Origin: a virus
Lineage: Duplodnaviria; Heunggongvirae; Uroviricota; Caudoviricetes
Length of the DNA stretch: 16,650 nucleotides
Virus record (IMG/VR): IMGVR_UViG_2737471869_000028
Coordinates: 1-16,650 of that record
Reading direction: 5' to 3' (one strand)
Position 1 is the stretch's first letter; each line of letters opens with the position of its first letter. The notes beneath the pieces are model-generated. The model was not told the origin of the DNA. It was given only the letters and a program-made list of their open reading frames with translations, and did not search any database. The translations under genes and the position numbers were made by a program. This document shows positions 2,480-3,426 of this stretch, in pieces.

Positions 2480-3287
2480 GAACTTTCAGGTAGGTATTGT
2501 CGTTAAGCAGGAAATCAAATCCCTTTTTGTGCCAGACGGTTCCGCGTTGATGGTTTGGGCGTTCTTCGAACATCCATCGGCAATTTTCGCCTACGTAGCT
2601 CAAATAATTTCTCCAGTCCTGCATCGTGAACCCATGCCCGTCAAGCTGGCGGGTTATCACTCCGGCTTTGCGCCAGAACGTTCGGATCTGGTTTTTACGC
2701 TTGTCATTCAGTGCGCGGATTCTTGGCGCTTCAGGAAGGATTTCGTGGTAAGCATCGACAACATCCTGACAGCTAACGGAAGGTTTTTTCTTGTCAGACT
2801 TTTTGTCTGCTGTGGCACTCTCTAATACGTCAGTATTAGAGATAATATTATTATATTCTTTATCTGTGGTAATTTGCTGGTAATCTGCTGGTACAAAATT
2901 TGACTGATAATCGTCATATTTCTCTACCGAGAAAACTGAGAATTTACCGTGTGAAACCCAGTCAATCATGCCGAGTTTTTTGAACTTTCTAAGCAGGTAC
3001 TGAACGCGATCTGGTTTGAGTCCTGTTTCAAACGCCAGAGAGTTTCTACCGCCAAGTAGCTTCCCTCTGCCTACCAGAATTTCTCCTGCGTCAGTCATTA
3101 CATACTCAGGCGTATGCTTTGCTTTGAGGATTAAGTGAACCCACAGATGCGCTGCTTCTGCGTCCTTGTAAAACGGCACATCCATAATTTTACGGTGCAG
3201 CAAGGCATACCCCTTACCGCTGCTTTGATGCGGTTGTTGTAGCCTTCTGGCCTCTCTGGCTTCGGCTAGATTAGATATGTTACTCAT
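2454..3287 (-). CDS. Replication initiator, O-like (conserved C-terminal domain)
   Basis: 277 aa; C-terminal part ([22 protein letters not shown]...[15 protein letters not shown]) resembles the conserved phage O-protein C-terminal domain; a linker region is encoded by AT-rich DNA; position between cII and the helicase. Confidence 0.75.
2821..2900. other. Candidate replication origin inside the O-like gene (AT-rich block plus short tandem repeats)
   Basis: About 45 bp of AT-rich sequence (2821-2866) adjacent to tandem degenerate 11-bp units CTGGTAATNTG (2865-2891), arranged iterons-then-AT-rich in the gene direction as in lambda ori. Confidence 0.3.
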
Positions 3288-3426
3288 GACCTTTCTCCTT
3301 CTGCATCAGCTTCACTTTTTCCAACTCAGCCCGGAATCGACCAGGCTGCTTGAAGCTGGACAGGAAGCGATCACGTAGTATGTGTTTGTGAATTTTGTCC
3401 TGGTAAGGACTGAGTTGTTTTGTCAT
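3280..3426 (-). CDS. Small ORF (48 aa) between cII and O, below the ORF-track size cutoff
   Basis: ATG at 3426 is preceded by AGGAG; its stop TAA overlaps the ATG of the O-like gene (sequence ATGAGTAA), suggesting translational coupling. Confidence 0.4.

Follow-up and report, generated by a model that had tools for sequence, protein, structure and literature searches.

Phage lambda naturally lacks orf48, whereas P22 carries this gene between oop and gene 18 (Hayes et al., 2012; PMC3349717). In lambda only 32 bp separate the end of cII (38653) from the start of O (38686), and the preliminary description of the present locus was right in saying that lambda has no gene in this interval. OOP transcripts have been detected in two phages that bear orf48, P22 and BTP1, and the small-RNA reads of P22 oop are 63 nt in length and start at GAUUGAUCCAGU (PMC13397905; PMC7067206). 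The gene also formed part of the cro-c1-orf48-O-P segment of Owen et al. (2021), which served as a replicon cassette only.

The window analysed here, a stretch of 16,650 nucleotides, corresponds to the left portion of a lambdoid prophage. Its minus strand holds an early-right operon that consists of a cro-like gene (3894..4127), cII (98 aa, 3459..3755; Pfam Phage_CII, E 1.4e-33), orf48, an O-type replication initiator gene (277 aa, 2454..3287; PHROG 345, E 6.7e-83, tblastn) and a DnaB-like helicase gene (1028..2479). The coding strand of cII contains a terminator-like hairpin, which may be due to chance (3590..3615, minus strand); it consists of a 9-bp stem followed by TGTGTGCTTT. The plus strand contains a cI-like repressor gene (4241..4945), a HigB/HigA-like pair (5082..6022), an N-like antiterminator gene, RecT, a lambda-type integrase gene (14162..15232) with Arm-DNA-binding and catalytic domains, and a host pectinesterase-like gene. 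The HigB-toxin-like gene (95 aa; HigB_toxin Pfam, E 4.5e-30) overlaps that of a 218-aa HTH protein, a candidate HigA-like antitoxin, and the pair, located between the genes for the cI repressor and the N antiterminator, occupies the position that rexAB has in lambda; a toxin–antitoxin or defence moron of the prophage is its probable identity. Towards the integrase end, a match to sRNA-Xcc1 (RF02221; 13128..13217, plus strand; 64.3 bits against a cutoff of 53) is the sole Rfam match in the window at gathering level, and an AntA/P22-antirepressor-like gene (13257..13880) lies just downstream of it. The pectinesterase-like gene follows the integrase gene and runs off the window (14162..16650, plus strand). 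The lambda attB site adjoins a pectinesterase-like gene, ybhC, and by this analogy the prophage may reside at the lambda attachment site.

The reading frame between cII and O occupies 3280..3426 of the minus strand and encodes 48 amino acids; the translation quoted for it matches that in the ORF list exactly. A 48-codon ORF is by itself unremarkable, as 8 kb of the sequence contain 96 ORFs that reach 30 aa or more. Its product matches the Pfam family DUF2740 (PF10872) with a score of 99.4 bits against a cutoff of 27 (E 8.9e-29), residues 6–48 covering positions 1–43 of the 43-position model, and it similarly matches PHROG 1913 (E 2.7e-28). A weak Pfam match to DUF896 (E 0.035) fell below the cutoff and was dropped. 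Members of the DUF2740 family are free-standing proteins of approximately 47–48 aa with a conserved core, HKxILRDRFL...GHE, every position of which is present in the window protein in an alignment of 26 members. The window protein is 100% identical to that of HK022 orf48, identical also to HK620 hkaW and to the VT2-Sakai copy, and shares 85% identity with P22 orf48. In tblastn searches the gene was present in 127 phage records. The family is nonetheless small and confined to Enterobacterales prophages, with 54 clusters at 90% identity and, from a deep profile search, approximately 20 representatives at 50% identity among 1.84 billion proteins.

The preliminary description had called the ORF unannotated and, as one of its options, novel. 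Neither term applies, as the gene is annotated in VT2-Sakai (AP000422, where it is entered as H0097, 'bacteriophage HK022 Orf48'), in Stx2 phage 86 (orf66), in HK620 (hkaW), in P22 (orf48) and in RefSeq E. coli genomes, where it bears the label 'DUF2740 family protein'. Sequence identity equates the ORF with orf48, a gene already known from lambdoid phages. The functional label attached to PHROG 1913, 'tail protein', is a mislabel that has been carried over into many RefSeq phage records, for example NC_002371 (P22), NC_008464, NC_019708 and NC_070949. In every genome seen the gene belongs to the early-right operon and adjoins replication genes, and the label therefore looks like an error, one that is spreading through the annotation of an early-operon gene.

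The evidence that orf48 encodes a protein was drawn from 21 distinct DNA versions taken from phage, genome and metagenome contigs, with protein identities of 58–100%. The frame is open in 21/21 of these, with a length of 47–54 codons. Variable sites number 28, 21 and 39 at the first, second and third codon positions respectively, and synonymous turnover is seen at conserved residues, Leu22 being specified by 6 codons and Arg30 by 5. Pairwise Nei–Gojobori dN/dS values relative to the HK022-type sequence range from 0.08 to 0.6, with dS up to >1. The pooled pN/pS in frame is 0.29–0.35 and there are no stops, in contrast to four of the five control frames, which give values of 1.1–1.3 and 34–88 stops. 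The fifth control frame, an antisense frame whose third positions coincide with those of the true frame, gives a pN/pS of 0.47 with 47 stops. In an Erwinia phage the core is conserved although the protein as a whole has fallen to 58% identity. The frame-specific pN/pS together with the lack of stops places the peptide sequence itself under selection, and this argues against both a pure leader and conserved DNA that does not code. This comparison shows that orf48 does code for a protein and that purifying selection acts on it; the gene for a small basic protein that had been suggested between cII and O is real.

The surroundings of orf48 provide a further view of what is being conserved. Every locus examined has an O-type initiator gene immediately downstream of orf48. 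In loci L100-L105 a gene of 168–265 aa is found between cII and orf48 and the overlap of orf48 with O is still intact; the linkage of orf48 is therefore to O and not to cII. Three types of replication module accompany it. The first, seen in the window, has an HK022-type O and a DnaB-like helicase. The second combines a P22 gp18-type O (Pfam Phage_rep_O) with a gp12-type helicase, and the third a 286-aa Phage_rep_O protein with a 626-aa Toprim/AAA_25 protein. No orf48 was found together with lambda P among the approximately 100 loci, a heavily redundant set. More distant relatives also keep the arrangement, as seen in CobraSix and in a Klebsiella phage, where a 48-aa ORF overlaps the next gene at GTGAGTAA.

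Identical orf48 proteins are found next to unrelated cII and O sequences. When the window is compared with L057 or with P22, an island of 90–100% nucleotide identity extends from approximately -60 to +150 of the orf48 ATG, and identity outside it is approximately 55%. Judged from these alignments, orf48 behaves as a mosaic unit of its own, delimited upstream by a conserved 'boundary sequence' and downstream by the 12-mer at the junction with O (see below). Such an island could also be read as conserved DNA, a recombination boundary or linker between the immunity and replication modules that carries the pO promoter and in which the reading frame is incidental. The island is flanked by unrelated cII and O in L057, L092 and L102, the first 26 nt of orf48 coincide with pO, and Sf6 has an annotated 'boundary sequence' at the equivalent spot, all of which would fit a linker. 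However, substitutions within the island are specific to the frame, the protein is kept while dS exceeds 1, and L100-L105 retain orf48 and its Shine–Dalgarno sequence away from cII and oop and without the CATAAT -10 element. Conservation of the DNA for its own sake is on this evidence highly unlikely.

At its 5' end orf48 has the AGGAG Shine–Dalgarno sequence that had been ascribed to it, at 3436..3432 on the minus strand, 5 nt ahead of the ATG (3426..3424) as read from the sequence. The motif ACAGGAGTAATTATG at this site is common to lambda O, P22 orf48 and Sf6 gene 42. At its 3' end the gene overlaps O by 8 nt, ATGAGTAA, with the stop codon lying 2 nt past the O ATG. It had been stated that the TAA overlaps the O start codon; the two reading frames do overlap, by these 8 nt, and the TAA itself (3282..3280) is clear of the ATG (3287..3285). 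The overlap lies within a 12-mer, GGTCATGAGTAA (3280..3291, minus strand), that is identical in 21/21 DNA versions, and the O sequence diverges straight after it. The same 8-nt overlap is also annotated in VT2-Sakai, P22 and an Erwinia phage. The last codons of orf48, K-G-H-E-stop, hold both the ribosome site and the start codon of O, the O ribosome-binding site being an AGGAG within the 3' end of orf48 (3295..3299, minus strand), with 7 nt between it and the O ATG. The weaker AAAGG or AAGGG takes its place in P22-type and other variants.

This geometry, with an upstream stop only a few nucleotides from the downstream start, is that of a coupled gene pair. The suggestion that translation of orf48 is coupled to that of O is borne out in so far as orf48 is positioned for it, and the overlap does not vary among the homologues examined. 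Ribosomes that end at the orf48 TAA would re-initiate at the O ATG 2 nt upstream, and the orf48 protein and O would in this way be made together in a set ratio. Coupling is plausible but may not be obligatory, because O in the window has a strong AGGAG of its own and the mRNA around it lacks significant structure. In P22-type junctions O may depend more on ribosomes arriving from upstream, because its own site there is only AAAGG.

The same junction can be explained by a pure leader or coupling cistron, in which the act of translation delivers ribosomes to O and the peptide has no function. The invariance of the 8-nt overlap would suit such a role, as would the weakening of the O ribosome site to AAAGG in P22-type variants, where O may need upstream ribosomes, and the presence in other phages of a different small ORF, of the Sf6 gene 42/HK97 gp53 type, that occupies the same slot and overlaps O too. 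A leader peptide, however, is free to vary, and the structure of its message masks the downstream Shine–Dalgarno sequence or start. The orf48 peptide shows instead the low pN/pS and the synonymous turnover at conserved residues described above, and it keeps the core HKxILRDRFL in the diverged Erwinia phage protein. Structure in the mRNA that would sequester the O start is likewise not found: the 106-nt region around it folds no better than shuffled sequences (z -1.19), and the O Shine–Dalgarno sequence is unpaired in the minimum free energy structure. The option of a mere leader peptide, raised when the ORF was first described, is accordingly improbable, given the purifying selection and the lack of significant structure at the O ribosome site. 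The preferred reading of orf48 remains that of a functional protein whose gene is also placed to be coupled to O.

The O gene downstream is itself of composite appearance. The N-terminal 128 aa of the window O are identical to HK022 O (100%, L004), and this domain is 48% identical to its Sf6 counterpart. The C-terminal half of O and the DnaB-like helicase share 99–100% protein identity with Sf6 (L108) genes 43 and 44. The comparison over 1028..2900 (minus strand) points to a mosaic junction within O, close to the origin. The window O is also shorter, at 277 aa, than that of HK022 and VT2-Sakai, at 299 aa. In the latter two phages the O gene contains two 35-nt iteron units 66 bp apart that are annotated as ori iterons 1 and 2 (cf. 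L001 2401..2501), whereas the window O contains a single iteron copy, AATTTTGTACCAGCAGATTACCAGCAAATTACCAC (2861..2895, minus strand), no direct repeat having been detected in the gene. The window thus lacks one 66-bp iteron unit relative to HK022 and VT2-Sakai, as would be expected if a 66-bp deletion had removed one iteron unit from the origin; such a loss might weaken or alter the function of the origin.

On the opposite strand, orf48 is adjoined by a homologue of the OOP antisense RNA. The region 3437..3515 (plus strand, approximately 79 nt) aligns nearly column for column with lambda oop, and also with the corresponding regions of HK022 and VT2-Sakai; the pattern TTTGTCATAAT..ACTCCTGT.GAT.GATCCAGTAAT is conserved in the alignment. 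The RNA would be complementary to the 3' end of cII, the last codons of which it covers, and to the cII–orf48 spacer, and it starts 1 nt from the orf48 Shine–Dalgarno sequence, from where it is directed away from orf48 and towards cII. It folds into two hairpins with a free energy of -30.4 kcal/mol (z -4.0), none of the shuffled sequences being as stable (0/200). Its intrinsic terminator, tO, is homologous to the lambda tO hairpin and is formed by a 12-bp stem followed by a T-run at 3483..3510 (plus strand), inside the 3' end of cII. A search of Rfam, which has no OOP family, gave only sub-threshold noise for this region.

The promoter of OOP, pO, is placed at 3401..3429 (plus strand) by homology to lambda pO and to the P22 record. 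It consists of a -35 element TGGTAA (3401..3406), a TG (3421..3422) and a -10 element CATAAT (3424..3429) with a 17-nt spacer, and TTTGTCATAAT is identical to lambda pO. The CAT of the -10 element is the complement of the orf48 ATG. Similarly, in the P22 record BK000583 an 'oop promoter' is annotated over the first 26 nt of orf48, and a terminator is annotated in the position equivalent to that of tO. The alignments therefore place pO and OOP beside orf48 in the window, the promoter being assigned by homology, in an arrangement that is already known from curated phage records.

The preliminary description had also drawn attention to a hairpin, GTCCT-GGTA-AGGAC, as a possible OOP-like antisense terminator. 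The hairpin is present at 3397..3410 (plus strand), with a stem of 5 bp, and an OOP-like antisense RNA does exist in the form of the homologue described above; the hairpin is not its terminator, as it covers the pO -35 element. The alternative would be that the hairpin and the T-rich tract after it terminate a short plus-strand antisense RNA over orf48. A consensus scan lists the hairpin as terminator-like, and the 46-nt region folds somewhat better than shuffled sequences (z -2.85). Against this, the stem is short and its tail is TGAGTTGTTT, a scan of the plus strand upstream found no promoter-like site, and the homologues offer no compensatory changes, the stem being broken in L099, L100 and L101. 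The hairpin is located inside orf48 and upstream of the OOP start, and it forms no part of a lambda-type OOP RNA. The true OOP starts downstream of it, at approximately 3437, with the P22 oop RNA start equivalent to approximately 3440, and ends at the 12-bp terminator. It is therefore extremely improbable that the hairpin acts as a terminator. On the other strand its sequence forms orf48 codons S6-D10, encoding S-P-Y-Q-D, and the -35 element TGGTAA is made up of its loop and 3' arm. The hairpin is best read as a by-product of the coding and promoter sequences.

The structure of the orf48 protein was modelled with AF2, giving a pLDDT of 81 and two helices, 7–25 and 28–44. The product is thus predicted, with fair confidence, to be a basic two-helix hairpin. 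The model gave 0 matches when compared with the PDB, and the best match in BFVD had an E-value of 6. A search of PDB sequences with the orf48 profile returned noise only, the best match being PhnI with an E-value of 0.08. The 20 matches from the deep profile search were without exception short ORFs, or fragments, from phages or prophages, and no fusion of DUF2740 to O or to a helicase was found among the 1.84 billion representatives. One apparent fusion (P0056, 152 aa) proved to be a frameshifted read-through from a P22-type c1, and three repeat proteins (P0061, P0062 and P0068) were spurious profile matches. In the literature no experiment on the function of orf48 was found; DUF2740 goes unmentioned, hkaW yielded only noise and orf48 is named in passing. 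The 'orf48' that appears in the accessory-gene screen of Silas et al. is an unrelated numbered ORF (gnarl1).

The position of the gene may nevertheless suggest a role. In the pR operon the replication module begins with orf48, and the orf48 protein may assist, as a small accessory factor, in the initiation of replication where a module combines an O-type initiator with a phage-encoded helicase. Such modules would use the phage helicase rather than lambda P and host DnaB. An accessory role at initiation in these own-helicase modules is a tentative proposal, and we would sooner expect it to fail than to hold. A specific pairing between the orf48 protein and O was considered and downgraded, as identical orf48 proteins flank unrelated O types. 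Because identical copies adjoin unrelated O and cII sequences, the partner is more likely to be a feature common to the modules or a host protein.

A more specific version of this proposal, which is correspondingly speculative and on balance unlikely, is that DUF2740 proteins, as helical hairpins produced in a fixed ratio to the O-type initiator, are dedicated co-factors of 'P-less' modules that either assist the loading of a phage-encoded helicase or primase-helicase at the origin or neutralize a host factor, and that orf48 is in addition throttled by OOP. If true, the co-factor role would explain why lambda, with P and host DnaB, is without orf48. A host factor neutralized in this way could be, for example, a protease or a replication protein. 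OOP would base-pair with the pR transcript to within 1 nt of the ribosome-binding site of orf48, and it could therefore throttle orf48 and, via coupling, O; throttling of this kind would link the lysis–lysogeny antisense RNA directly to the initiation of replication.

Taken together, the observations are probably best explained by a known coding gene, orf48, that opens the replication module, encodes a putative accessory factor whose synthesis may be coupled to that of O, and carries pO on the opposite strand at its 5' end. The discovery value of the locus is small, as the gene, its overlap with O, and OOP with its promoter and terminator are already present in the P22, HK022 and VT2-Sakai records and in Pfam. 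Its interest lies in a small protein that has been kept across Enterobacterales prophages, including Shiga-toxin phages, always ahead of a replication initiator.

In comparison with HK022 and P22 the window orf48 has the same length, the same slot between cII or oop and an O-type gene, and the same 8-nt overlap; nothing of substance differs, and the orf48 of the window is another copy. A looser relationship is seen with the 53-aa ORF represented by Sf6 gene 42 and HK97 gp53, which starts MTKRRKKYQEK. This ORF lies in the same slot after the boundary sequence and also overlaps the O-type gene, but it is unrelated to DUF2740 beyond approximately the first 11 residues and it overlaps O by 14 nt, compared with 8 nt for orf48. 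With the oop, pO and tO elements of lambda the window (3401..3515) shares the two-hairpin RNA, the terminator inside the 3' end of cII, and the same TTTGTCATAAT -10 region, which holds the complement of the first start codon of the replication module. In lambda that start codon belongs to O, whereas in the window it belongs to orf48, and the window -35 element TGGTAA is weaker than the lambda TTGAGT. Finally, orf48 and O resemble the stop–start pairs of the ATGA or ATGxxTAA type, in that only 2 nt separate the next start from the stop downstream of it and the downstream ribosome site is inside the upstream coding sequence. The O gene of the window has, as a difference, an independent AGGAG, and its dependence on orf48 is putative.
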